A stretch of 43,852 bases of DNA from a virus. Lineage: Duplodnaviria; Heunggongvirae; Uroviricota; Caudoviricetes. The stretch spans positions 1 through 43,852 of IMG/VR virus record IMGVR_UViG_2563366881_000002. One strand, written 5' to 3'. This document shows positions 1 through 16,201 of the stretch, piece after piece; position 1 is the stretch's first letter, and each line of letters opens with the position of its first letter. The notes under the pieces are model-generated. The model worked only from the letters and a program-made list of their open reading frames with translations. It was not told where the DNA came from and did no database searches. The position numbers were made by a program, and so were the translations under genes.

Positions 1-1164
1 TTACGCCTTCTTTATATCCTCCATAATTCCACAGTGGGACATATTTGGGACATTATCACCAAAAATGTCGTCTATTTTCCTTGCATGCTCTGTCAAATGA
101 TTAGGCGCAAGGTGAGCATACCTACGAACCATTTCTATGGACTCCCATCCGCCCATTTCCTGAAGCACAGATAATGGGACGCCTGACTGGATCAGCCAGC
201 TTGCCCAGGTGTGTCTGAGGTCATGGAAACGGAAATCTTCAATTCCTGCACGACGACAAGCTGATAGCCATGATGTCTTGCTGTCGATGCGCATCTTCCT
301 GACCGCAGGCGTTGATGTTCCATCTGCTCGCTTAGCCGCCTTGGTATGTACAAACACCCATTTGTGATGCTTGCCTATTTGATCACGCAACACTTTACAG
401 GCGGTATCGTTCAGCGCCACACCAATGGCGCGGTTTGATTTGCTCTCTTCTGGATTCACCCAGGCAACTCGTCGCTGCATGTCGATTTGTTGCCATTCCA
501 GATTTATGATGTTCGACTTTCTCAGACCAGTTGCCAGCGCAAACTTGACGACAGATTTCAGTGGTTCGGGGCACTCATCAATAAGGCGTTTTGCTTCCTC
601 CTTTTCCAGCCATCTGACTCGCTTGTTTCTGACCGCTGGTATCTTGATGACAGGCGCTTTTTCCAGCCACTTCCAGTCGCGTTCTGCAGCACGGAGAATG
701 GCCTTTATCATGGCAAGATGCTTTGCCTTTGTCTGAGTTGATACTGGCTTTGGTTCATAAACAGGCGGTTCTTTACCTTTCCTGATGGCGGCCTGAACTT
801 TCTGTTTCCATATTTCTTTCGTCTTTCTGTTATGCATTCTGCTTACAGCAGAGTAAATCTTTGCCTCCGAGATATCTTTAAGCCTTATACCCTCAAAATG
901 TTCAAGCCAGAACTCAATCCGGCTTTTATCTGAATCGAGAGATTTTTTATCAGCTTTTTCCTCAAGCCATCTTAGGCAGGCCTCTTCAAAAGTGACATCA
1001 GGTAAATCCCCTAGCTTTTCTACTCGCCAGAGTTCTGCTTTTCGCTTGTCGTGCAACTCCTGAGCTTGCCGCTTGTCCTTTGTGCCAAGAGATTCCTTAA
1101 TTCGTTTCCCGCCCGGGAGCGAATACGAGGCATACCATATTTCATTTCTGCGGAAGAGTGACAT
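1..1164 (-). CDS. int: phage tyrosine integrase (site-specific recombinase)
   Basis: 387-aa ORF; C-terminal tyrosine-recombinase signature (..[20 protein letters not shown]..); SD AGAGGAAAG 5 nt before ATG; first gene of prophage followed by excisionase. Confidence 0.9.
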
Positions 1165-2712: not shown

Positions 2713-3537
2713 TCAGGCGGTGAAAGTACCAATAAAGGTTTCTACTTTGCTGTCTTTGAATTTCTCAACAAGCAGATCACGAAATTCGTTAGCCATTTCT
2801 TCCTGCACCGCCTCCAGCTGAATAATGCGCAGAACCAGTACAGGACGATCGCCAGTGATAATGCTGAGGCGTAATTTAAATGGACGTTCTTTCAGACCTT
2901 CAAACGGAACGCATTTAAATTCAAATGCCACTGGCATAATATCTTTGGTTTTCGCTTCGACAGACTCCATCAGGGAGCGTTTGCCGCTGAAGTCATTATC
3001 TTCAAAATCAGCGGTCTGGTTTGCTTCAATCGTGATTTTACGGACAGCCGCAGCCGCTTTTGTTGCCTGAATAGCGTCACCATTAGCATCAAAGCCCACA
3101 AGGTAGTCGGCCCAGTCTTCAATCCATTCTGCCAGTGACTTCTGGGAATGACGCTCGCCATTAACAGACAACAGAGCAGAGAACGGTGCTGTCTTTTTCA
3201 GTTTGAGAGTGGAGGTGTTATCTGCGTGACCTGGTTCATCAATAGTACCCAGGTTAAGCACACTGACGGCACGCATATTATCGGCATCGATAAAGCAGCG
3301 GGTGCCTTCATCTGCAAGATCTTTAGAATAACGGGTAAAATCATCGATGCTGGCAGTGGAAAGTGCACCACGGAAACGGAAGCGATTTAAATTAAATTTT
3401 TCCAGATCATGAATGCGGAAATTCTCAGGCAATGCCACAGCATCGGCACCAATCTTACTGATAATTTCATTAACACCCTGAGCAGAAATAAGGGCATGGA
3501 TTTGATTAATTGCGGTTGCGTCTAAGTTCTGAGACAT
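2713..3537 (-). CDS. yfdQ: DUF2303-family phage protein (YfdQ-like), 274 aa
   Basis: 274-aa ORF with SD GAGGA 7 nt upstream; length and neighbourhood match YfdQ (recalled). Confidence 0.6.
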
Positions 3538-3602
3538 AATAAGTCCTCACTATATAAAGATATTCAGTGATGAGATAAATAATCAGTTTATTACGAACGA
3601 TA

Positions 3603-3965
3603 TTAACGACCTGCTGCGCGGAGTTTTCCGTCAGGTTCACCGGCAAGAGTCAGTAATTGTCCCTGGTCTTCCTGCAGAATAGTCAGGCGACCACCGCGAT
3701 TGACATACATCGGCGTTTCGGTGGTGTCTTCTTCGGAAATTTTCCCGCGGTTAGTTGGGCGAACATATGAGAGTTTGTGTTTGATTTTCACACGGTTCTC
3801 ATCAAACGGTTCGATTTCCAGATTGAGTGAGACCTTCCCTTTGGTTTTCGTGTTCATCACACCGGAAGCGACCTCACTGAGAACTGCGCCGATTTTGGTT
3901 TCAAATACGCCGCCGTCCAGCTCCCCGATAAATGCCTGCACATCAGTACTGCGTTCGCTAGCCAT
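3603..3965 (-). CDS. yfdP: hypothetical early protein (YfdP-like), 120 aa
   Basis: Internal ATG at 3965 (MASERSTDVQAF...) preceded by SD GAGGAGCAG; upstream part of the longer ORF-track frame has no coding character. Confidence 0.5.
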   Translation of the reverse strand: MASERSTDVQAFIGELDGGVFETKIGAVLSEVASGVMNTKTKGKVSLNLEIEPFDENRVKIKHKLSYVRPTNRGKISEEDTTETPMYVNRGGRLTILQEDQGQLLTLAGEPDGKLRAAGR

Positions 3966-4459
3966 TTTGCTGCTCCTCATCATATCGACCCTGCAAGGTC
4001 GGTTGGTTTCTCCACAAAACAGAGAAGAACACCTGCGGTGGCAGCCGCCCGGATGGATTGGGTTATGAGCCCGTCGTCCGGTGATGCTCTTCTCTGTTTT
4101 GCAAAAAAGGACGGTACCAGCCGGAAGCAAGGGTACAAACTGGTACCGCCAGGACTACACACAGCATAAAGTTGTGGTGCCGGGTGCCTCCCGGTGCCTG
4201 GCGAAGGTTGCACACCAGGCGGGTGGGTATCCACAGAAGGTCGACTGTCAGCCTCAACCTTAACCCGCGTGCGCTGAGCCGCATTCACCACAACGCTAAG
4301 GATTCTCTCTGGTTGAAAATACTTAGCTGTTATGTGCCTGCTTTTAGCCACATCAGGCGAGGTGGACCTGGTTATTCCCCAACAACAAGGATTCGGTTAA
4401 TCTGGATATCCCCAACAACAATAAGAGTATTCAATGTGATCGCTGAATTAACGGCAGCA

Positions 4460-4951
4460 ATGACGGCTATTCGTGAAACAGCCCAGATTGCAAAACTAAT
4501 GAACGAGGCAAAAACTCAAGCTGAAGTAAATGCGGCTATTGGTGAGCTGAACTCAAAGCTTGCGTCTATTCAGCGCGAATGCGTGTCTCTCGTTGAACTG
4601 GTGGGCTCTTATCAAGAAATAAATGCTTCTCTCAAAGCTAAAATTGCAGAATTCGAAAACTTTGAGGCTCAGACGGAAGGCTATATCCTTAACCAACTTG
4701 AGTCGGGTACTTTTGTATACTCGAAGGAGGTAATCGTGAACGGTGGCAGCATAACCATGCATCTTTGCCCAAAATGTTTTGGACAAAAGATAGTATCGAT
4801 ACTTCAACCATTCCCGGTTAGCGAAGATGAGCTTTTTCATAAAAGCAGGTGCCTCCACTGTGAAAATAAGTTTCTGATGAATAAAAATCCGGATTACGTA
4901 TCGCCTCCATCCATTGAGGAGTTGTCCAGAAAACTTAACGGCAATCTGTAG
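4460..4951 (+). CDS. hypothetical coiled-coil protein with C-terminal C4 zinc ribbon (AT-rich cargo gene)
   Basis: 163 aa from ATG 4460 (alternative GTG 4436); N-terminal heptad-like region, C-terminal CPKC...x34...CLHC; AT-rich codon usage unlike flanking genes; followed by intrinsic terminator. Confidence 0.5.
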   Translation: MTAIRETAQIAKLMNEAKTQAEVNAAIGELNSKLASIQRECVSLVELVGSYQEINASLKAKIAEFENFEAQTEGYILNQLESGTFVYSKEVIVNGGSITMHLCPKCFGQKIVSILQPFPVSEDELFHKSRCLHCENKFLMNKNPDYVSPPSIEELSRKLNGNL

Positions 4952-4984
4952 ATTACTACTGTTGTGGATATCCAGATTGTTAAA

Positions 4985-5016
4985 GAGCTAAGCGTCCTGT
5001 AGGGCGCTTTTTTGTT
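4985..5016 (+). terminator. rho-independent terminator downstream of zinc-ribbon ORF
   Basis: Stem AAGCG..CGCTT followed by TTTTTTGTTG. Confidence 0.4.
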
Positions 5017-5100
5017 GCTAACGAATCATCCGGTCATTCATACGCCACCGGCGGCTACTTCGTGGGCGTCCTGCCTGTCCGTGATAGCTTACATTATGTT

Positions 5101-5150
5101 GCTACTTAAAGTAGCAAAAATCAACAACAAAAAGTAGATATTTGTTGTTG
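5101..5150. promoter_or_regulatory. operator-like palindromes (candidate OL/pL region)
   Basis: Palindrome GCTACTT-A-AAGTAGC (5101-5115) shares half-site AAGTAG with the two repeats in the cI/cro intergenic region; second inverted repeat CAACAACAAA..TTTGTTGTTG (5122-5150). Confidence 0.4.
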
Positions 5151-5335
5151 TCTATGATTTTTCTATAATTAATTGAAAGTTAAATGTTTTTGCTGATTTA
5201 CTATGCTGTAAACTGAAAATATCGCACGAAGTTGGAGTAGGTATTGAGCATAGTGAATTATGAGGAGGGAGTTTTTTATGAGATTAATCAGGGAGAAAGA
5301 AGAGTAAAGCCCGGTTATGCGGCCGGGCACATGCA

Positions 5336-6412
5336 TTACTTTGTAAGTTCTAGAACTCGTTGAGCCAGCCCTTTAAATTGTTCGTTAAAGGCGTCTCTGC
5401 TTGATTTCATTGTATTTAAGGCATGCCCAAATTGCCCTGAATCGCGAATTTGCTGATCACTGATGGAGAAAACAGGTGTCGCTAGTTGTTGGCTTATTGC
5501 GATTAATGAGTTGAAATCGGAAATATGCGCAAGATCATAGGCTGATAAATCTCCACTGACTGTTGTTTTGTTAATTGCATGTTGCACTTTATCTCGTGGA
5601 ATTATGCAGGTAATTTTTTCTAGATTTGGCACTAAGATCGAATCAACAGCATCACGGATAGCTGCCATCCATTTTTCGAAAGATTTTACAGGTGCTCCTT
5701 TACGCGGCCTGTATCTCTGCTGAATCATACCTAGAAACTGCGGTGCATTTTTAATTGATTGTGAAGAGTTACCATCATTATTTTCTTTAAATAATGCTAA
5801 TTCTTTGTGCCAGCGAGGTATATTTTTTGAGAGAGAGCGAATTGCTTGCCAGCAAAAAAAGTCTGGAGCTACAGGTACGATAAAATAGTCACTTGACATG
5901 AGAACTACTTCATTTAAACCTCCAACATTAGGGCTGAGATCATAAAGAATGTAATCAATATTATTCTTCATGGCGATTAGCTGTAATATTTTTGGCAGGT
6001 TCCCTGGTATATTTCTTGTAGCAGGAATACCAGCAGCAATTTTTAGAGAAACACTTATCTGTGAATCTAAGTCCGAAACATCTAAATGTCCGGGAAGAAG
6101 CAGAAGGTTTTCATGCAGTGTAGGGTGTAATTTTCCCGTTTCTTTTTCAAGGTATGCTTCAGGTTGTCCGCCATTAATCAAATATTCTACAATAGGTCCA
6201 AGAGTTAAGTTATCTCTGCTAGAATAAAAAGAATCTAAACCCTCATCAATCTTTTCATAGCCAAGAACCATTCCTGTTAGATTACATTGCGAATCAAGGT
6301 CAACCATCAATACTTTCTTGCCTTCATCCGCAAGTGCCCATCCAAGATTGAAGGTTGTTGTGGTTTTACTTACCCCACCTTTATGATTAAAAAAACAAAT
6401 TGATTTTGTCAT
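5336..6412 (-). CDS. ParA/MinD-family P-loop ATPase with extended C-terminal region (358 aa), rex-position cargo
   Basis: Deviant Walker A ..NHKGGVSKTTTTFNLG.. and ParA-type motif ..VLMVDLDSQCN..; SD AGGA upstream; AT-rich; sits immediately downstream of cI on same strand with own AT-rich upstream region. Confidence 0.8.
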   Translation of the reverse strand: MTKSICFFNHKGGVSKTTTTFNLGWALADEGKKVLMVDLDSQCNLTGMVLGYEKIDEGLDSFYSSRDNLTLGPIVEYLINGGQPEAYLEKETGKLHPTLHENLLLLPGHLDVSDLDSQISVSLKIAAGIPATRNIPGNLPKILQLIAMKNNIDYILYDLSPNVGGLNEVVLMSSDYFIVPVAPDFFCWQAIRSLSKNIPRWHKELALFKENNDGNSSQSIKNAPQFLGMIQQRYRPRKGAPVKSFEKWMAAIRDAVDSILVPNLEKITCIIPRDKVQHAINKTTVSGDLSAYDLAHISDFNSLIAISQQLATPVFSISDQQIRDSGQFGHALNTMKSSRDAFNEQFKGLAQRVLELTK

Positions 6413-6582
6413 ATTTCTCTATCCTTTCGACCCCCAGCATATTGTAATTTACGCTGGGTGATTATTTTATATTGTTAATGATAATGTTTAATAAAAATAA
6501 GAGAGTAAAACAACTATTAGTAATAGCACTTGCTTGATAAATATTATTTTTTCACCTTTAGTTCTATAGTCTAAACGAAGAA

Positions 6583-7344
6583 CTAAAGCCGGTTGTATTT
6601 AATTGATTCGTGTATCAATGCTTTGCCCATAACATAAAGTTGATCTTGGGACTTCTCATCAATGTACCATTTCTCATAGGCTGGATTATCCGAAAGAACG
6701 GCGAGTTTGTTGCCTTGCATTTGTAGACGTTTAACGTGGAACGTCTTACCATAAACGAAAGAGTAAACACCATCAGTTTGGAAGTTGCGAACAGAAATGT
6801 CGACAAACAGTCGATCTCCGGAAACTAGAGTAGGGGACATGCTGTCGCCATTTACAGTCATAACTTTAATATCATCTTGAGAACGATTACCGAAAAGAGA
6901 ACGGGCATGCTCTGTTGTGAACTCAATGGCGTAGAGCACATCAACATAGTCTGAAAGCATATAGGTTCCAGGTCCTGCGCTAACGCTAAGATCCAAAACT
7001 TCTATCCTGTATACATCGGGTTTTGTTGGATTGGGGATGCTTGCCATTTCCTTACATCCTTCTCTCTCGCCAACACCATATTCTAAATATGAAGCTGATA
7101 CCCCCAGAGCCAATGCAAGTTTATTCATGACAGAGGCACGAGGCTTCGCAGCGCCGATTGTGTATCGCCGCGCCATTTCATATGTAACGCCCACAAGACT
7201 TTTGAGTTGGGTGACAGAAATTCCCTTGTTTGTCATTAGCTCGTTTAGTCTCTTGGCGAAATCTGGATACTTCTGTTCTTCTACCATAGGTAGAAGGTTA
7301 CTCGCATCACATACGCTAGTCATTTCTATTTTAAGTAGTTGCAT
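6583..7344 (-). CDS. cI: CI-like prophage repressor (N-terminal HTH_XRE, C-terminal S24 LexA-like peptidase domain)
   Basis: HTH (..ISVTQLKSLVGVTYEMARRY..), S24 catalytic Ser in ..NGDSMSPT.. and Lys in ..HVKRLQ..; divergent from cro-like gene. True start may be internal (ATG at 7323 or 7287); no SD at any candidate, so possibly leaderless. Confidence 0.85.
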   Translation of the reverse strand: MQLLKIEMTSVCDASNLLPMVEEQKYPDFAKRLNELMTNKGISVTQLKSLVGVTYEMARRYTIGAAKPRASVMNKLALALGVSASYLEYGVGEREGCKEMASIPNPTKPDVYRIEVLDLSVSAGPGTYMLSDYVDVLYAIEFTTEHARSLFGNRSQDDIKVMTVNGDSMSPTLVSGDRLFVDISVRNFQTDGVYSFVYGKTFHVKRLQMQGNKLAVLSDNPAYEKWYIDEKSQDQLYVMGKALIHESIKYNRL

Positions 7345-7361
7345 TCTGCTATTTTAAGTAG
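7326..7361. promoter_or_regulatory. OR-type operators: two direct copies of CTATTTTAAGTAG in cI/cro divergent promoter region
   Basis: Identical 13-mers at 7326-7338 and 7349-7361 (23-bp centre spacing), each an imperfect palindrome CTAyTT-N-AAGTAG; same motif at 5102-5114. Confidence 0.5.
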
Positions 7362-7393
7362 CATCATCCCTCTGAATTTCAGAGGAGAAAGGT

Positions 7394-8587: not shown

Positions 8588-9529
8588 ATGAGCACTAAAT
8601 TAACCGGCTATGTATGGGATGGTTGCGCTGCATCAGGCATGAAATTATCCAGCGTGGCAATTATGGCCCGCCTGGCTGATTTCAGTAATGACGAAGGTGT
8701 GTGCTGGCCATCAATTGAAACCATTGCCCGCCAGATTGGCGCGGGGATGAGTACCGTCAGAACGGCTATCGCACGGCTGGAAGCAGAAGGCTGGTTAACG
8801 CGTAGGGCGCGTCGCCAGGGTAACCGCAATGCGTCGAATGTTTATCAGCTTAACGTTGCGAAGCTTCAGGCAGCGGCATTTTCTCAACTGTCAGATTCTG
8901 ACCCGTCAAAATCTGACGCATCAAAATCTGACCCGTCAAAATTTGATGCGTCGAAATCTGGCAAAAAAGCGGGTTTTCACCCGTCAGAATCTGGTGGGGA
9001 TCCGTCAGTAAAATCAAAACATGATCCGTCAGATAAAAAAACTTCTCGTCCGGACGCTTCGCAACCGGACACGCAGACGGCTGAACAGGATTTTTTAACT
9101 CGCCATCCTGATGCGGTTGTATTCAGCCCTAAAAAGCGCCAGTGGGGGACGCAGGATGATTTGACCTGCGCACAGTGGCTCTGGAAAAAAATCATCGCCC
9201 TGTACGAGCATGCCGCCGAATGTGACGGCGAGGTGGTTCGTCCCAAAGAACCGAACTGGACAGCATGGGCAAACGAAATTCGCCTGATGTGTGTGCAGGA
9301 TGGTCGTACTCATAAACAAATCTGCGAGATGTACAGCCGCGTCAGTCGCGATCCGTTCTGGTGCCGTAACGTGCTCAGCCCGTCGAAGCTGCGGGAAAAA
9401 TGGGATGAGCTTTCCCTGCGCTTATCGCCGTCCGTCAGCACGTACACCGAAAAACGCGAAGACCCGTACTTCAAAGCCAGTTACGACAACGTGGACTACA
9501 GCCAGATCCCGGCAGGATTCAGGGGGTGA
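8588..9529 (+). CDS. replication initiation protein (lambda O-like; N-terminal HTH, internal iteron origin)
   Basis: N-terminal winged-helix (..SIETIARQIGAGMSTVRTAIARLEAEGWL..); tandem 15-bp repeats inside the gene encode an SDxSK linker, as in lambda O/ori. Confidence 0.7.
   Translation: MSTKLTGYVWDGCAASGMKLSSVAIMARLADFSNDEGVCWPSIETIARQIGAGMSTVRTAIARLEAEGWLTRRARRQGNRNASNVYQLNVAKLQAAAFSQLSDSDPSKSDASKSDPSKFDASKSGKKAGFHPSESGGDPSVKSKHDPSDKKTSRPDASQPDTQTAEQDFLTRHPDAVVFSPKKRQWGTQDDLTCAQWLWKKIIALYEHAAECDGEVVRPKEPNWTAWANEIRLMCVQDGRTHKQICEMYSRVSRDPFWCRNVLSPSKLREKWDELSLRLSPSVSTYTEKREDPYFKASYDNVDYSQIPAGFRG
8893..9038. repeat. iterons (candidate origin of replication) inside initiator gene
   Basis: At least five tandem ~15-bp units ACCCGTCAAAATCTG / ACGCATCAAAATCTG / ... 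plus degenerate copies and flanking A-tracts. Confidence 0.6.
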
Positions 9530-9531
9530 TC

Positions 9532-10020
9532 ATGAGTCTTTTGAATGACGTTCAGAAATTCATTGAAGCCCATCCGGGGTGTACTTCCGGAGACATTGCG
9601 GATGCTTTTGCAGGTTACTCACGACAGCGCGTTCTGCAGTCAGCAAGCAAGTTACGTCAGAGTGGGCGTGTGGCTCACCGTTGTGAAGGGGATACACGCA
9701 GACATTTCCCGCGGCTGACTGAGATACCGCAGGAGCCGGAACCGCAACCAGTTCGTGAATCCAGACCTGTGCGCAATTTCTATGTCGGCACTAACGATCC
9801 CCGGGTGATTTTGTGCCTGACCCGCCAGGCGGAAGAACTGGAGTCCAGGGGCTTATACCGTCGTGCTGCAACGGTGTGGATGGCGGCATTCCGTGAAAGC
9901 CACTCCCAGCAAGAGCGAAACAATTTTCTTGCGCGTCGTGAGCGGTGTTTACGGAAAAGCAGCAAGCGCGCTGTATCGGGTGAAGAGTGGTATCTGTCAG
10001 GGAATTACGTGGGGGCTTAA
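9532..10020 (+). CDS. hypothetical protein (replication/nin region; possible winged-helix regulator)
   Basis: ATG 9532 with SD AGGGGG 6 nt upstream; 162 aa; Arg-rich C-terminus. Confidence 0.5.
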   Translation: MSLLNDVQKFIEAHPGCTSGDIADAFAGYSRQRVLQSASKLRQSGRVAHRCEGDTRRHFPRLTEIPQEPEPQPVRESRPVRNFYVGTNDPRVILCLTRQAEELESRGLYRRAATVWMAAFRESHSQQERNNFLARRERCLRKSSKRAVSGEEWYLSGNYVGA

Positions 10021-10346
10021 TGACGACGTTAACTCAATGCCAGCAGCAGGTGCTGGATATGCTGATTTCTTACCAGAAAGAACGTGGCTTCCCGCCAACC
10101 AATCAGGAGGTGGCTACCATGCTGGGATACCGTTCAGTGAATGCAGCGGTGGAGCATCTTCGCGCACTGGAGAAAAAAGGCGTCATCACGATAAAGCGTG
10201 GCGTGGCCCGGGGCATCACGCTTCATACCGCGGTGAAGGACGACGACAGCGAGGTGGCCGGGATTATCCGCGCACTGCTTGCTGGTGAGGAAAACGCCAG
10301 GCTGCGTGCAGCCCACTGGTTACATGAGAGGGGGCTGAAAGTATGA
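10020..10346 (+). CDS. LexA N-terminal DNA-binding-domain-like protein, no S24 protease domain
   Basis: MTTLTQCQQQVLDMLISYQKERGFPPTNQEVATMLGYRSVNAAVEHLRALEKKGVI closely parallels E. coli LexA residues ~1-65 (recalled); ORF ends after ~108 aa. Confidence 0.55.
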   Translation: MTTLTQCQQQVLDMLISYQKERGFPPTNQEVATMLGYRSVNAAVEHLRALEKKGVITIKRGVARGITLHTAVKDDDSEVAGIIRALLAGEENARLRAAHWLHERGLKV

Positions 10347-10732
10347 AGCTGATTCTGCCTTTTCCACCCAGCGTGAACACCTACTGGCGACACCCCAACA
10401 AAGGGGCATTTGCTGGTAAGAGCCTGATAAGCGCGGCGGGGCGAAAATTCCAGAGTGCGGCGTGCACAGCAATAGTTGAGCAGTTACGTCGTCTGCCGAA
10501 ACCAACGTCGGCACCTGCTTCAGTGGAGATCGTGTTGTTTCCTCCGGATAACCGGATCCGCGATCTGGACAACTATAACAAGGCGCTGTTTGACGCCCTG
10601 ACCCACGCGGGTGTGTGGGAAGACGACAGCCAGGTGAAAAGAATGCTGGTGGAGTGGGGACCGGTTATCCCGGAAGGGAAGGTCGAGATCACTATCAGTA
10701 AGTACGAGAAAACGGCGGGTGCAGCCGCCTGA
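10343..10732 (+). CDS. rusA: RusA-family Holliday junction resolvase
   Basis: ..LPFPPSVNTYWRH....RDLDNYNKALFDALTHAGVWEDDSQV.. matches RusA catalytic core; ATGA-coupled to upstream gene. Confidence 0.85.
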   Translation: MKLILPFPPSVNTYWRHPNKGAFAGKSLISAAGRKFQSAACTAIVEQLRRLPKPTSAPASVEIVLFPPDNRIRDLDNYNKALFDALTHAGVWEDDSQVKRMLVEWGPVIPEGKVEITISKYEKTAGAAA

Positions 10733-10751
10733 TCAAGAGGAGAAACGAAGT

Positions 10752-11594
10752 ATGAATAATCTGATGGTCATTGATGGTATTGAAGTTCGTCGTGATGCTT
10801 ATGGGCGTTACAGCCTGAACGATCTGCATCGGGCTGCTGTTGCATCTGGTGCAAATGCCAGAACTAAGGAGCCGGGAAAGTTTCTTTCCAGCCAACAGAT
10901 TACTGAGCTGGTTCAAGAATTGATCGATACCCAAAATTTGGGTGTCGGTTCATTCAATGAAACTACCCAAAATTTGGGTAGTAAACCAGTAAGTAAAATA
11001 GAAGGGCGGAATGGAGGAACGTATGTCTGCAAGGAACTGGTGTATGCCTATGCAATGTGGATCAGCCCGTCATTCCATCTGAAGGTGATCCGTACTTTCG
11101 ATATGGTAACCAGCACACCGGAAAAATTATCCGGGCAGGCTGCTGACAAGATGCAGGCTGGCGTGATCCTGCTGGACTTTATGCGCAGGGAATTAAACCT
11201 GTCTAACTCATCAGTGCTTGGAGCCTGTCAGAAGCTTCAGGAGGCTGTTGGCTTACCGAATCTGGCACCGCGCTATGCCATTGATGCTCCTGCTGACGCG
11301 CCTGATGGCTCAAGTCGCCCCACGCTGTCGCTGAGTGCACTGCTGAAACAGTATGGTATCCGCCTGACGGCTAATCAGGCATATCACCAGATGGTGAAGC
11401 TGGGGATCGTTGAACAACGCGAACGATACAGCCGTACCGCGATTAACAACATCAAAAAATTCTGGTCGCTGACGGCGAAAGGCTGCATGTTCGGCAAGAA
11501 CATCACCAGTCCTGCAAATCCGCGCGAGACGCAGCCGCATTTCTTCGAATCCCGATTCCCTGAGCTGTTAAAGCTGCTCGATACCGTTCATTGA
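10752..11594 (+). CDS. KilA-N domain protein (antirepressor-like)
   Basis: Start MNNLMVIDGIEVRRDAYGRYSLNDLHRAA.. is a typical KilA-N N-terminus; SD GAGGAG upstream. Confidence 0.65.
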   Translation: MNNLMVIDGIEVRRDAYGRYSLNDLHRAAVASGANARTKEPGKFLSSQQITELVQELIDTQNLGVGSFNETTQNLGSKPVSKIEGRNGGTYVCKELVYAYAMWISPSFHLKVIRTFDMVTSTPEKLSGQAADKMQAGVILLDFMRRELNLSNSSVLGACQKLQEAVGLPNLAPRYAIDAPADAPDGSSRPTLSLSALLKQYGIRLTANQAYHQMVKLGIVEQRERYSRTAINNIKKFWSLTAKGCMFGKNITSPANPRETQPHFFESRFPELLKLLDTVH

Positions 11595-11595
11595 G

Positions 11596-12591
11596 GTGAC
11601 CGTGAGAGCACTACTGACCCCTGAAATTGCCCCGCGTATGGGGATCGTATTGTTCAGGCCAGGTTCAGAGCTGATGCCCCTGTTTATGCAGGGGCGTGTC
11701 CTGCTGGAGCCTGAGCCGGAACGTTATTCATCTTTCGCCAGTGGTGCCGTTCCGGCGGCATCACAACCGCTGGCGGATGATCCTGCCGTTCGGGCCGTGT
11801 TCCGCAATGAGGCAGTGATCCGTCGTGCTGGTGGCGTGGAATGTCTTGAAAGCTGGTTACTTCGTGAAAAGGGCTGTCAGTGGCCTCATTCCGACTGGCA
11901 CAGCGAGAACATGACCACAATGCGACACGCGCCGGGCGCAATCCGTCTGTGTTGGCACTGCGATAACCAGTTGCGTGATCAGTTCACGGAACGGCTGGAA
12001 TCAATGGCAACGGATAACTGTGCCCACTGGGTGTTATCTGTCGTGCGTCGGGATCTCGGTTTTGATGACAGTCACGTAGTGACAATGCCGGAACTGTGCT
12101 GGTGGCTGGTTCGTAATGACCTGGCGGATGCCTTACCGGAAAGTGCAGCCCGTAAGGCACTGAGATTACCGAAGCCGGTTGTGCCGTCTGTCACCCGGGA
12201 GAGTGACCTTGTTCCTTCGGTTCCTGCCACCAGCATTATCCAGGATAAAGCGAAAAAGGTGCTGGCGCTGAAAGTGGATCCAGAGTCGCCGGAGTCTTTT
12301 ATGTTACGCCCAAAACGTCGCCGCTGGGTTAATGAAAAGTACACGCGCTGGGTTAAGACACAGCCGTGTGCATGTTGTGGAAAGCCTGCTGATGATCCCC
12401 ACCACCTGATAGGCCATGGTCAGGGTGGAATGGGTACAAAAGCGCATGACCTCTTTGTGTTGCCTTTGTGCAGAAAGCATCACGACGAGCTGCATGCGGA
12501 TACCGTGGCATTTGAAGAGATGTATGGCTCCCAGCTGGAGCTGATATTTCGTTTTATCGATCATGCGCTGGCAATAGGCGTACTGGCGTAA
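11596..12591 (+). CDS. DUF968-family protein (YdfU-like) with C-terminal HNH-like Cys/His motif
   Basis: C-terminal ..CACCGKPADDPHHLIGHGQGGMGTKAHDLFVLPLCRKHHDELH..; sits immediately upstream of Q as ydfU does in Qin (recalled). Confidence 0.6.
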   Translation: MTVRALLTPEIAPRMGIVLFRPGSELMPLFMQGRVLLEPEPERYSSFASGAVPAASQPLADDPAVRAVFRNEAVIRRAGGVECLESWLLREKGCQWPHSDWHSENMTTMRHAPGAIRLCWHCDNQLRDQFTERLESMATDNCAHWVLSVVRRDLGFDDSHVVTMPELCWWLVRNDLADALPESAARKALRLPKPVVPSVTRESDLVPSVPATSIIQDKAKKVLALKVDPESPESFMLRPKRRRWVNEKYTRWVKTQPCACCGKPADDPHHLIGHGQGGMGTKAHDLFVLPLCRKHHDELHADTVAFEEMYGSQLELIFRFIDHALAIGVLA

Positions 12592-12604
12592 GTGGAGAAC
12601 GAGC

Positions 12605-13357
12605 ATGAACCTTGAAGCCTTACCAAAATATTACTCCCCAAAATCTCCAAAATTGAGCGATGACGCACCGGCGACAGGCTCAGGTGGTTTAACGATTACG
12701 GATGTGATGGCTGCGCAGGGGATGGTGCAGTCGAAAGCACCGCTTGGGTTTGCCTTATTCCTGGCAAAAGTTGGTGTTCAGGATCCTCAGTTTGCGATTG
12801 AAGGTCTGCTCAATTACGCGATGGCAATGGATAACCCGACATTGAACAAATTGAGTGAAGAAACCCGGTTACAGATCATCCCTTACCTTGTGAGTTTTGC
12901 CTTTGCTGATTATTCCAGGTCTGCGGCAAGTAAGGCTCGCTGTGAGCATTGTGCTGGTACTGGATTTCATAGTGTATTGCGCGAAGTGGTGAAACACTCC
13001 AGAAGCGGGGAATCTGTTATCAAGGAAGAGTGGGTGAAGGAATTATGTCAGCATTGCCATGGTAAGGGAGAAGTCAGCACGGCTTGCAGAGGGTGTAAGG
13101 GTAAAGGCATTGTCCTGGATGAAAAAAGAACCCGGCTTCATGGCACACCTGTTTATAAGATTTGTGGGCGTTGCAATGGAAACCGGTTTAGTCGTTTACC
13201 GACCACACTGGCACGACGTCATGTCCAGAAGCTGGTACCAGACCTGACTGATTATCAGTGGTACAAAGGATATGCAGACGTCATTGATAAACTGGTAACA
13301 AAGTGCTGGCAGGAAGAAGCATTCGCTGAAGCACAATTGAGAAAGGTGACGAGATAA
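12605..13357 (+). CDS. Q: late-gene antitermination protein Q (QuuQ/Q82-like, zinc-binding)
   Basis: 250 aa; CxxC pairs (CEHCAGTG, CQHCHGKG, CRGCKGKG, CGRCNG); followed by candidate pR' and terminator; position between nin-like genes and lysis cassette. Confidence 0.7.
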   Translation: MNLEALPKYYSPKSPKLSDDAPATGSGGLTITDVMAAQGMVQSKAPLGFALFLAKVGVQDPQFAIEGLLNYAMAMDNPTLNKLSEETRLQIIPYLVSFAFADYSRSAASKARCEHCAGTGFHSVLREVVKHSRSGESVIKEEWVKELCQHCHGKGEVSTACRGCKGKGIVLDEKRTRLHGTPVYKICGRCNGNRFSRLPTTLARRHVQKLVPDLTDYQWYKGYADVIDKLVTKCWQEEAFAEAQLRKVTR

Positions 13358-14567: not shown

Positions 14568-15629
14568 ATGAAAAACACTGTAAAAATAAACAGTATTGAT
14601 TTAATCAACGCTGATTGCCTGCATTTTATTCAGTCCCTGCCTGATGATTCCATTGACCTGATTGTTACCGATCCGCCTTACTTCAAGGTGAAACCCAACG
14701 GTTGGGACAATCAGTGGAAAGGGGACGAAGATTACCTTAAGTGGCTGGACCACTGTCTGGCCCAGTTCTGGCGGGTGTTGAAACCTGCCGGAAGCCTTTA
14801 CCTGTTCTGTGGGCATCGCCTGGCATCTGATATTGAGATCATGATGCGTGAACGTTTCAACGTGCTTAACCATATCATCTGGGCGAAGCCGTCCGGACGT
14901 TGGAATGGGTGTAATAAAGAAAGTCTGCGCGCATATTTTCCTGCCACAGAGCGCGTTCTGTTTGCTGAACATTACCGGGGGCCATATCGCGGCAAAAGTG
15001 ACGGCTATGTGGCAAAAGAAAGGGAACTCAAACAGCACATAATGGCACCGCTGATATCGTATTTCAGGGATGCTCGTGCCGAACTGGGTATAACGGCAAA
15101 ACAAATTGCCGAAGCCACAGGTAAGAAAAATATGGTTTCCCACTGGTTTGGTGCCAGTCAGTGGCAGTTGCCGAATGAGGCTGACTACCGGAAGTTACAG
15201 GCACTGTTTTCCCGTATAGCGGCAGAGAAGTTTCAGGAACAACAACTGGAACAACCACACCACCAGTTGGTGGCATCTTATGATTCACTGAATCGCAAAT
15301 ATTCTGAATTGCTGGATGAGTTTAAATCTCTCCGGCGCTATTTCTCCGTATCAGTCTCCGTGCCTTATACCGATGTCTGGATGCATAAACCCGTTCAGTT
15401 CTACCCGGGTAAACATCCGTGTGAGAAACCGGCGGATATGCTCAGGCAAATAATCAATGCCAGTAGTCGACCCGGCGATCTGGTTGCTGATTTCTTTATG
15501 GGATCCGGTTCCACAATAAAAGCAGCAATGGCGCTGGGGCGTCGGGCGTTAGGTGTTGAGCTTGAGACAGAGCGGTTTAATCAGACCATCCAGGAAATCA
15601 GTATGTTATCAGCAAATACAATTTTGTGA
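14568..15629 (+). CDS. DNA methyltransferase, beta-class amino-MTase (N6-adenine or N4-cytosine), orphan
   Basis: Motif IV DPPY (..LIVTDPPYF..) near N-terminus and motif I FxGxG (..FFMGSGST..) near C-terminus; no adjacent restriction endonuclease recognised. Confidence 0.85.
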   Translation: MKNTVKINSIDLINADCLHFIQSLPDDSIDLIVTDPPYFKVKPNGWDNQWKGDEDYLKWLDHCLAQFWRVLKPAGSLYLFCGHRLASDIEIMMRERFNVLNHIIWAKPSGRWNGCNKESLRAYFPATERVLFAEHYRGPYRGKSDGYVAKERELKQHIMAPLISYFRDARAELGITAKQIAEATGKKNMVSHWFGASQWQLPNEADYRKLQALFSRIAAEKFQEQQLEQPHHQLVASYDSLNRKYSELLDEFKSLRRYFSVSVSVPYTDVWMHKPVQFYPGKHPCEKPADMLRQIINASSRPGDLVADFFMGSGSTIKAAMALGRRALGVELETERFNQTIQEISMLSANTIL

Positions 15630-15870: not shown

Positions 15871-15910
15871 AGCTGTCAGATTAGCGCGATAATCTGACAG
15901 CTTTTTTTTT
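15871..15910 (+). terminator. rho-independent terminator
   Basis: 12-bp stem AGCTGTCAGATT...AATCTGACAGCT followed by T9. Confidence 0.55.
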
Positions 15911-16201
15911 ACAACGAATCCTTCTGATCTGCTTTTGCGGGGCTTTTTTGTATCCGCTCCATGCCCGGCGTATAAGCGGAGGTTGGTCAGTTTTCTAAAA
16001 ATTGAAATACCTCACAATTCAGCCAGTTAATGGTTGTTTGTCTGGCGAAGAGTTTGTAAATAAAAAAACGCATGGTGAATCCCCCTAAGCGGCGGGGCGA
16101 ATCAGCAGTCAGTTCTGGGATAATCGCGGGTTCGTATGCTGATGCCGGACTCACCGGGAGGCACCCGGCACCATGCATCATGGTCATCCCCTTGTATGAT
16201 A

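Follow-up and report, generated by a model that had tools for sequence, protein, structure and literature searches.

A gene in the nin-like region of a lambdoid prophage encodes a stand-alone LexA-type DNA-binding domain (LexA-DBD) protein of 108 amino acids (aa), which has no S24 peptidase domain and ends in a conserved two-helix tail. The sequence (Caudoviricetes; IMG/VR virus record IMGVR_UViG_2563366881_000002, positions 1 to 43,852) was analysed over its full 43,852 nt, and this whole stretch is referred to below as the window. We consider the chances about even that the gene encodes a surrogate of LexA which acts on SOS operators and is insensitive to RecA. The broader proposition, that a very common prophage family re-imposes SOS repression after the loss of host LexA and so determines how strong the SOS response of the host is, and how long it lasts, once induction has begun, seems to us possible, with the balance tilted slightly against it. 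The feature itself is not new: the family to which the gene belongs is very widespread and has been annotated before, though functionally it is unstudied. Coordinates of the features are collected in Table 1.

The assignment of the domain is unambiguous. Residues 1–65 cover the whole 65-position Pfam profile PF01726 (LexA_DNA_bind) with an E-value of 2.9e-19, and the protein scores 69 bits against a cut-off of 23.7. A gapless BLASTP alignment of residues 1–68 with Escherichia coli LexA has 35 identities in 68 positions (51%; E = 2e-21). When PDB sequences were searched with phmmer, the matches were LexA chains only (1lea, 1jhh, 3jso and others; E ∼1e-15). The likeness to LexA's N-terminal DNA-binding domain, noted in the original prediction together with a pairwise alignment as the way to check it, is thus borne out. 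The same holds for the lack of an autocleavage domain: the Pfam search gave no PF00717 (S24 peptidase) match in the 108-aa protein, whose chain ends at residue 108, and the score against the NCBIfam lexA equivalog TIGR00498 (67.4 bits) is under the cut-off of 110.95. Two defining traits of LexA proper are missing, namely the C-terminal S24 peptidase/dimerisation domain with its Ser119/Lys156 dyad and the Ala84-Gly85 cleavage site in a conserved loop. The protein has the make-up of PHROG 362 (‘transcriptional repressor’), i.e. a PF01726 domain plus a conserved two-helix tail with no other domain, and it matches that profile from end to end (E = 7e-58; residues 1–108 against profile positions 1–106). 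Two other assignments were rejected. The records of some members carry the name of the Rrf2 family, for which the PF02082 score was 18 bits against a cut-off of 30, and a relative scored 18.8 with TIGR00738, below the threshold of 73.3. For membership in a defence system, PADLOC gave only a match that was marginal and meaningless.

The AlphaFold2 monomer model of the protein has a mean predicted local distance difference test score (pLDDT) of 81 and a predicted template modelling score of 0.55. Beyond the domain, the model places two helices at residues 75–87 and 93–103 (pLDDT ∼86), joined to the domain by a low-confidence linker (residues 69–74; pLDDT <50 at 71–75). The tail pattern …LLRAL…ARERA..FL..G is kept across genera, in relatives down to ∼40% identity. 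In a 26-member alignment A97 and L101 are almost invariant, and a hydrophobic stripe runs through positions 79, 82, 83, 86, 87 and 100. The earlier description of the product as a bare domain was therefore right about the domain and wrong about its end, since residues 69–108 include this conserved tail. Homology of the tail to the hinge, cleavage loop or C-terminal domain of LexA was undetectable: tail-only searches against a LexA hidden Markov model (HMM) built from 80 proteobacterial LexA sequences gave at most 2.3 bits, while shuffled tails reached 7.2. Likeness of the tail to any RecA-binding element was not seen either. Being conserved and not detectably related to LexA, the tail sets the proteins apart as a discrete family (LexA-DBD plus two-helix tail, 105–135 aa).

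A retained cleavage site was considered as well, because MAFFT and LexA HMM alignments sometimes paired the tail segment …IIRALLAGEE… with …LVGRVAAGEP… of LexA, hinting at a trans-cleavable or pseudo-substrate site. It was ruled out by the tail-only scores just given and by the predicted helical state of the segment. Likewise, the A88-G89 pair lies inside a predicted helix, is not conserved in the family and is not homologous to the cleavage region of LexA.

Near-identical genes (95–98% nucleotide identity) occur in SfV (orf42), SfII, SfIV, mEp460, cdtI, 2H10 and Stx2a, Stx2c and Stx2k phages, ∼50 phage records in all; annotated genes in SfV, SfII, mEp460, Stx2 phages and E. coli genomes, taken together, are 94–100% identical to that of the window. 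Among 5426 complete E. coli genomes 2233 (41%) have the gene, in up to four copies per genome, and PGAP names these copies ‘LexA family transcriptional regulator’. Distant members were found in Salmonella, Citrobacter, Cronobacter, Klebsiella, Enterobacter, Atlantibacter, Kosakonia and Hafnia. We found only catalogue mentions and no functional work on this PHROG 362-type family in the full-text literature; an example is ‘pham 237, LexA family transcriptional regulator, pfam01726’ in 15 Stx phages (PMC8136144).

These data bear on one alternative, namely that a captured lexA gene has left an inert remnant which no longer serves any function. The protein does look like a truncated host gene product, and the region is rich in accessory ‘moron’-type genes. 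On the other hand, length and tail are kept over at least 10 enterobacterial genera, pairwise dN/dS values against relatives (0.16–0.40) indicate purifying selection, the gene occurs in 41% of complete E. coli genomes, with up to four copies, its translation is coupled to that of an operon neighbour, and its tail is not derived from LexA. The conservation data effectively refute the remnant, to which we attach almost no probability.

What the domain may bind is suggested by its contact residues, which we took from later papers summarising the LexA–DNA structure of Zhang et al. (2010). In accounts of the crystal structure (3JSO), the main contacts to CTGT are made by S39, N41, A42 and E45, with R28 on the backbone (PMC11442139; bioRxiv 2020.07.14.201889); an older contact list based on nuclear magnetic resonance includes E44 as well (PMC3091678). 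The window protein is identical to E. coli LexA at S39, N41, A42 and E45. Conservation was counted over 26 family members from several genera, down to ∼40% identity. The recognition helix is both the most conserved segment of the family (mean majority fraction 0.77) and the most LexA-like one (63% identity to E. coli LexA): S39 is retained in 26/26 members, N41 in 25/26 and A42 in 23/26, while 19/26 have an acidic residue (E or D) at position 45. Wing residues G54, I56, G61, R64, G65 and I66 are largely kept; the rigid operator spacing of LexA has been ascribed to wing contacts of the DNA-binding domain (PMC8565304). That the specificity residues are kept although the family has diverged speaks for one invariant target common to its members; the host SOS box is the obvious candidate, while phage-specific operators predict the opposite. 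It is plausible but unproven, judging from sequence, that the protein binds CTGT-N8-ACAG operators as a dimer.

The family falls into a short subfamily (105–112 aa), which includes the window gene, and a long subfamily (130–135 aa) with an N-terminal extension. In the long subfamily the gene is linked in cis to SOS control. In all five contexts examined, the operon is headed by a canonical SOS box of 20.6–27 bits at a sigma-70-like promoter. The scores come from a position weight matrix (PWM) made of 20 symmetrised E. coli SOS boxes; as a background, 310 kb of these prophage sequences contained boxes of at least 18 bits at a rate of one per 22 kb. The operon order is box, (dinI, phage recA or nothing), orfX, LexA-DBD, orf66/67, (RusA), DUF968 and Q, with small orfX always upstream of the LexA-DBD gene and orf66/67 always downstream; in Klebsiella prophages the gene shares its operon with dinI. 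Although not independent of each other, the five contexts represent three different arrangements. If the boxes work as they read, host LexA would gate Q expression directly in these prophages. An SOS-related role is suggested for a LexA look-alike that would itself be under LexA repression and share its transcript with DinI or RecA, and RecA-independent negative feedback on SOS operators would be the simplest circuit for the long subfamily.

For the short subfamily we compared the contexts of the window, SfV, mEp390 and loci of Salmonella, Cronobacter, Kosakonia, Atlantibacter and Citrobacter. All but mEp390 have the order O-like, PerC, (1–2 DNA methyltransferases), LexA-DBD, RusA, (KilA-N or ANT), DUF968 and Q; in mEp390 a replication-type gene directly precedes the LexA-DBD gene, with no PerC or methyltransferase gene between. 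The lambdoid nin-like position upstream of RusA and/or DUF968 and Q is thus shared by the window gene and its relatives.

The window is a lambdoid prophage with an integrase gene (1–1164, minus strand), a gene for an S24-type CI repressor (6583–7344, minus strand) and a cII-like gene. Its nin-like block runs O-like (8588–9529), PerC, LexA-DBD, RusA, KilA-N, DUF968 (HNH) and Q (12605–13357), so that the gene does sit beside rusA, in keeping with the original prediction; DNA methyltransferase, holin, lysozyme, terminase and tail genes follow Q in the late region. Genes from 8588 to 13357 all abut or overlap, leaving no intergenic space for an operator in the nin block. The stop codon of the PerC-like gene overlaps the start of the LexA-DBD gene (TAATG, 10018–10022), which indicates translational coupling of the two co-transcribed genes. 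At the other end, the LexA-DBD stop overlaps the rusA start (ATGA, 10343–10346). No plus-strand promoter-like site was seen in the window between the immunity region (PR) and Q; given this and the overlaps with both neighbours, the gene belongs to the early rightward operon and early lytic expression is expected.

The scheme that we favour, a LexA surrogate, would work as follows. Upon prophage induction or infection, the protein would be made from the early rightward (PR) operon, between replication genes and Q, at the time when cleavage of host LexA is under way or complete; members of the long subfamily would be made from an SOS promoter instead. The winged-helix domain would still read CTGT half-sites, with the two-helix tail taking over dimerisation from the missing S24 domain. 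The protein could then occupy CTGT-N8-ACAG operators at host SOS promoters and at the phage box by the late-region methyltransferase gene. These promoters would be held down regardless of activated RecA (RecA*), because the protein has no cleavage site, catalytic domain or RecA-binding surface. To the presumed benefit of the phage, SOS output would be damped or shortened in lytic growth, including recA, sulA, error-prone polymerases, colicins and those functions of co-resident prophages that LexA controls.

The late-region box in question starts 8 nt into the open reading frame (ORF) of an N6_N4 DNA methyltransferase (14568–15629), between Q/tR′ and the holin gene. Elsewhere in the window the next best PWM site had 10.0 bits, and the maximum in shuffled sequence was 17.2. 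The box is kept at the equivalent place in SfV, phiP27, Kp4866-6 and phiNP (∼80% nucleotide identity); it is a genuine LexA operator, and LexA thus seems to control the late-region methyltransferase directly. We had considered the box, a candidate binding site of the protein within the phage, as evidence for its target and rejected it as such: phiP27 and phiNP carry it without a LexA-like gene, and host LexA alone can therefore account for it. A further candidate operator, a palindrome with CTGT…ACAG at 15871–15902, was rejected because its 16-bp stem is followed by T9, i.e. it is a terminator.

Several observations weigh against a LexA surrogate, the box in the gene-less phages phiP27 and phiNP among them. 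E44, conserved in proteobacterial LexA, is retained in none of the 26 family members (it is V in the window protein), and R28 is replaced by N in the window protein. In 7/26 members, among them the Klebsiella group located behind a perfect SOS box, position 45 is taken by L, T or G. As E44 is always lost and E45 is variable, the conservation argument for an SOS-box target is inconclusive. No SOS box was found near the short-subfamily gene in any context examined. No structural neighbours covering the tail were found, and its role as a dimerisation element replacing the S24 domain is a guess based on the model; dimerisation through the tail is, all the same, most likely the answer to the objection that LexA dimerisation needs the C-terminal domain. 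The literature yielded no binding, oligomerisation or reporter results for any member. Finally, there is a precedent for another use of the fold: gp6 of GIL01, a tectivirus of Bacillus thuringiensis, is a truncated LexA homologue that acts as an activator at a palindrome of its own, overlapping the −35 element of late promoter P3 (Fornelos et al. 2018, PMC6182141). The uncleavable occupant of SOS boxes that had originally been proposed is partly supported: the conserved contact residues, the LexA-like recognition helix and the SOS boxes of the long subfamily speak for it, the gp6 precedent and the loss of E45 in some members against it.

The precedent defines an alternative that we regard as rather unlikely, a phage-specific transcription factor of the gp6 type. 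Here the LexA fold would have been re-targeted to an operator of the phage itself and would activate or repress a phage promoter, for example one for timing of the nin/Q or late genes, with no general effect on SOS. GIL01 gp6 binds GaCACAn nTGTGaC at −43.5 and activates P3 (PMC6182141). The missing E44, the variability at R28 and E45 and the strict synteny just upstream of RusA-DUF968-Q would agree with such a factor, as would the fact that stand-alone LexA-DBD proteins are frequent in unrelated phages too. Yet a switch of specificity predicts that the recognition helix should be the most variable segment, whereas it is the most conserved and most LexA-like. The nin block, moreover, has no intergenic room for an operator, and no recurrent non-SOS palindrome was seen at PR′ or between Q and the holin gene, where the large palindrome is the terminator mentioned above.

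A different alternative, improbable in our estimate, is a role through protein contacts: the tail or a surface of the DNA-binding domain would bind a host or phage partner such as RecA filaments, LexA or the PerC-like, orfX or orf67 proteins, and DNA binding would be a mere tether or lost. The tail is indeed a conserved family-specific module, and the long-subfamily gene is always flanked by orfX and orf66/67, often beside DinI or RecA; besides, GIL01 gp7 is a small phage protein that acts by binding LexA (PMC6182141). Such a role gives no reason for purifying selection to maintain the wing and all four residues that contact bases, though, and the tail resembles neither the cleavage region of LexA nor any RecA-binding element. 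In addition, the short subfamily lacks orfX and orf67.

Among known systems, GIL01 gp6 is the closest characterised relative and the only characterised phage protein consisting of a LexA-DBD alone. Both proteins are phage-encoded LexA winged-helix domains without S24, expressed from an early operon, and belong to phages whose life cycle is linked with SOS. However, gp6 is little beyond the domain and its recognition helix has diverged (K38 is critical), while the window protein keeps S39, N41, A42 and E45, has an extra two-helix tail and belongs to lambdoid enterobacterial phages with late control by Q. The N-terminal fragment of LexA (residues 1–84), left after RecA*-stimulated autocleavage, is another close analogue, with the same fold, 51% identity and no further cleavage in the RecA pathway. 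This fragment retains some operator binding and repression, and its removal by ClpXP is needed for full SOS induction (PMC10584840). It differs in exposing a ClpX signal, so that it is degraded and SOS turns on, and in having no dimerisation element; the window protein has another C-terminus (…ERGLKV) and a conserved helical tail not found in the fragment.

Full-length LexA (TIGR00498) and its non-inducible alleles, LexA(Ind-), for example S119A, have the DNA-binding domain in common with the window protein and, if it is a LexA surrogate, the operator too; a phenotype similar to that of a dominant LexA(Ind-) allele would then be expected. Unlike full-length LexA, the window protein lacks the S24 domain, the Ser/Lys dyad and any homologous cleavage loop. 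Other SOS modulators of phages and plasmids (DinI, PsiB, GIL01 gp7) are comparable in the proposed outcome, the tuning of host SOS by a mobile element. These proteins target RecA or LexA, whereas the window protein would act on the operators.

If SOS boxes are bound, a large share of strains of E. coli, Shigella, Salmonella and Klebsiella carry at least one prophage-encoded SOS repressor beyond the reach of RecA inactivation. Strength and duration of expression of SOS genes (mutagenic polymerases, sulA, recA) in lysogens under antibiotic or DNA-damage stress would be affected, as would the way in which prophages of polylysogens compete or synchronise and the coupling of induction to toxin production in Stx phages. 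Along with the SOS response, prophages would actively set the level of mutagenesis, the cross-induction of other prophages in the cell, the release of colicins and possibly the output of Shiga toxin. For the SOS-controlled dinI/recA-Q operon of the long subfamily, the protein would complete a negative feedback loop independent of RecA. The protein would also represent a natural design in which the dimerisation/cleavage domain of LexA is swapped for a 35-residue helical module. Should it have an operator of its own, as gp6 does, it would be one further phage regulator of local interest.

Table 1. Features of the window, and operon heads of long-subfamily prophages (last five lines; coordinates of the respective loci)
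Feature	Position	Strand	Remarks
Stand-alone LexA-DBD protein gene, 108 aa	10020..10346	+	ATG start; TGA stop at 10344–10346; from the ORF list
Winged helix-turn-helix LexA DNA-binding domain, residues 1–68	10020..10223	+	Helices 6–22, 28–35 and 40–52; wing strands 56–58 and 66–68
Recognition helix SVNAAVEHLRALEK, residues 39–52	10134..10175	+	From alignments; LexA S39, N41, A42 and E45 kept, E44 replaced by V
Two-helix family-specific tail, residues 75–108	10242..10343	+	From AlphaFold2 model and family alignments; putative dimerisation element
PerC-like gene	9526..10020	+	Pfam PerC, E = 9.2e-10; PHROG 1324; PerC neighbour recurs in relatives
rusA (Holliday junction resolvase)	10343..10732	+	Pfam RusA PF05866, E = 7.4e-15; neighbour kept in nearly all contexts
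GGGGG Shine-Dalgarno-like run	10011..10015	+	Read from sequence; 4 nt before ATG
SOS box CACTGTAAAAATAAACAGTA	14576..14595	.	Exact CTGT-N8-ACAG; 22.9 bits; only strong box in the 43.9-kb window
L081, Klebsiella	6336–7393 (SOS-box promoter 6336–6404)		SOS box, then dinI, orfX, LexA-DBD
L089, Enterobacter	5531–6408 (SOS-box promoter 5531–5579)		SOS box, then orfX, LexA-DBD
L096, metagenome	2893–4784		SOS box, then phage recA, orfX, LexA-DBD
L097, K. michiganensis	3536–5393		SOS box, then phage recA, orfX, LexA-DBD
L099/L100, metagenome	L099 4564–5408		SOS box, then orfX, LexA-DBD

Some further observations were made on the genes around the LexA-DBD gene. In most relatives, one or two methyltransferase genes of differing families (Dam PF05869, D12 PF02086, C5 PF00145) stand between the PerC-like and LexA-DBD genes; this insert of ∼650 bp is absent at 10018–10022 of the window and also from the Stx2c and 2H10 phages. 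Past the late-region methyltransferase gene, the window has a strong intrinsic terminator (15871–15911), a near-perfect palindrome of 16 + 16 nt (AGCTGTCAGATTAGCG/CGATAATCTGACAGCT) followed by T9. Neither a convincing ORF nor a tRNA gene was seen in the ∼1-kb stretch before the holin gene around this terminator. A gene for a ParA/MinD-like AAA_31 ATPase (5336–6412, minus strand) lies just left of the CI gene and has weak PADLOC matches to the candidate defence component PDC-M28B; it may be a moron or a defence/partition gene expressed in the lysogen.

The Enterobacter locus L089 has a second strong SOS box (25.1 bits; 10164–10183) beside a reverse-oriented gene of 202 aa located after the lysozyme gene. 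In the same locus, an RNase_A_bac/CdiI-like toxin-immunity cassette (3863–5232) is inserted upstream of the SOS-controlled operon.

A scan of a genome collection with the family alignment was discarded: the pattern sat in the recognition helix, and the 12 loci that were translated proved to be ordinary full-length host LexA. Five database entries (P0001, P0121, P0252, P0253 and P0098) join the LexA-DBD ORF to an HTH_36 replication protein, Dam or RusA; they are probably artefacts of gene calling or frameshifts at the overlapping stop/start codons and not real fusions. Eight other proteins (P0129, P0130, P0146, P0150, P0152, P0153, P0158 and P0160) have a tandem pair of LexA DNA-binding domains and no S24; these would be single-chain pseudo-dimers, another answer to the missing dimerisation domain.

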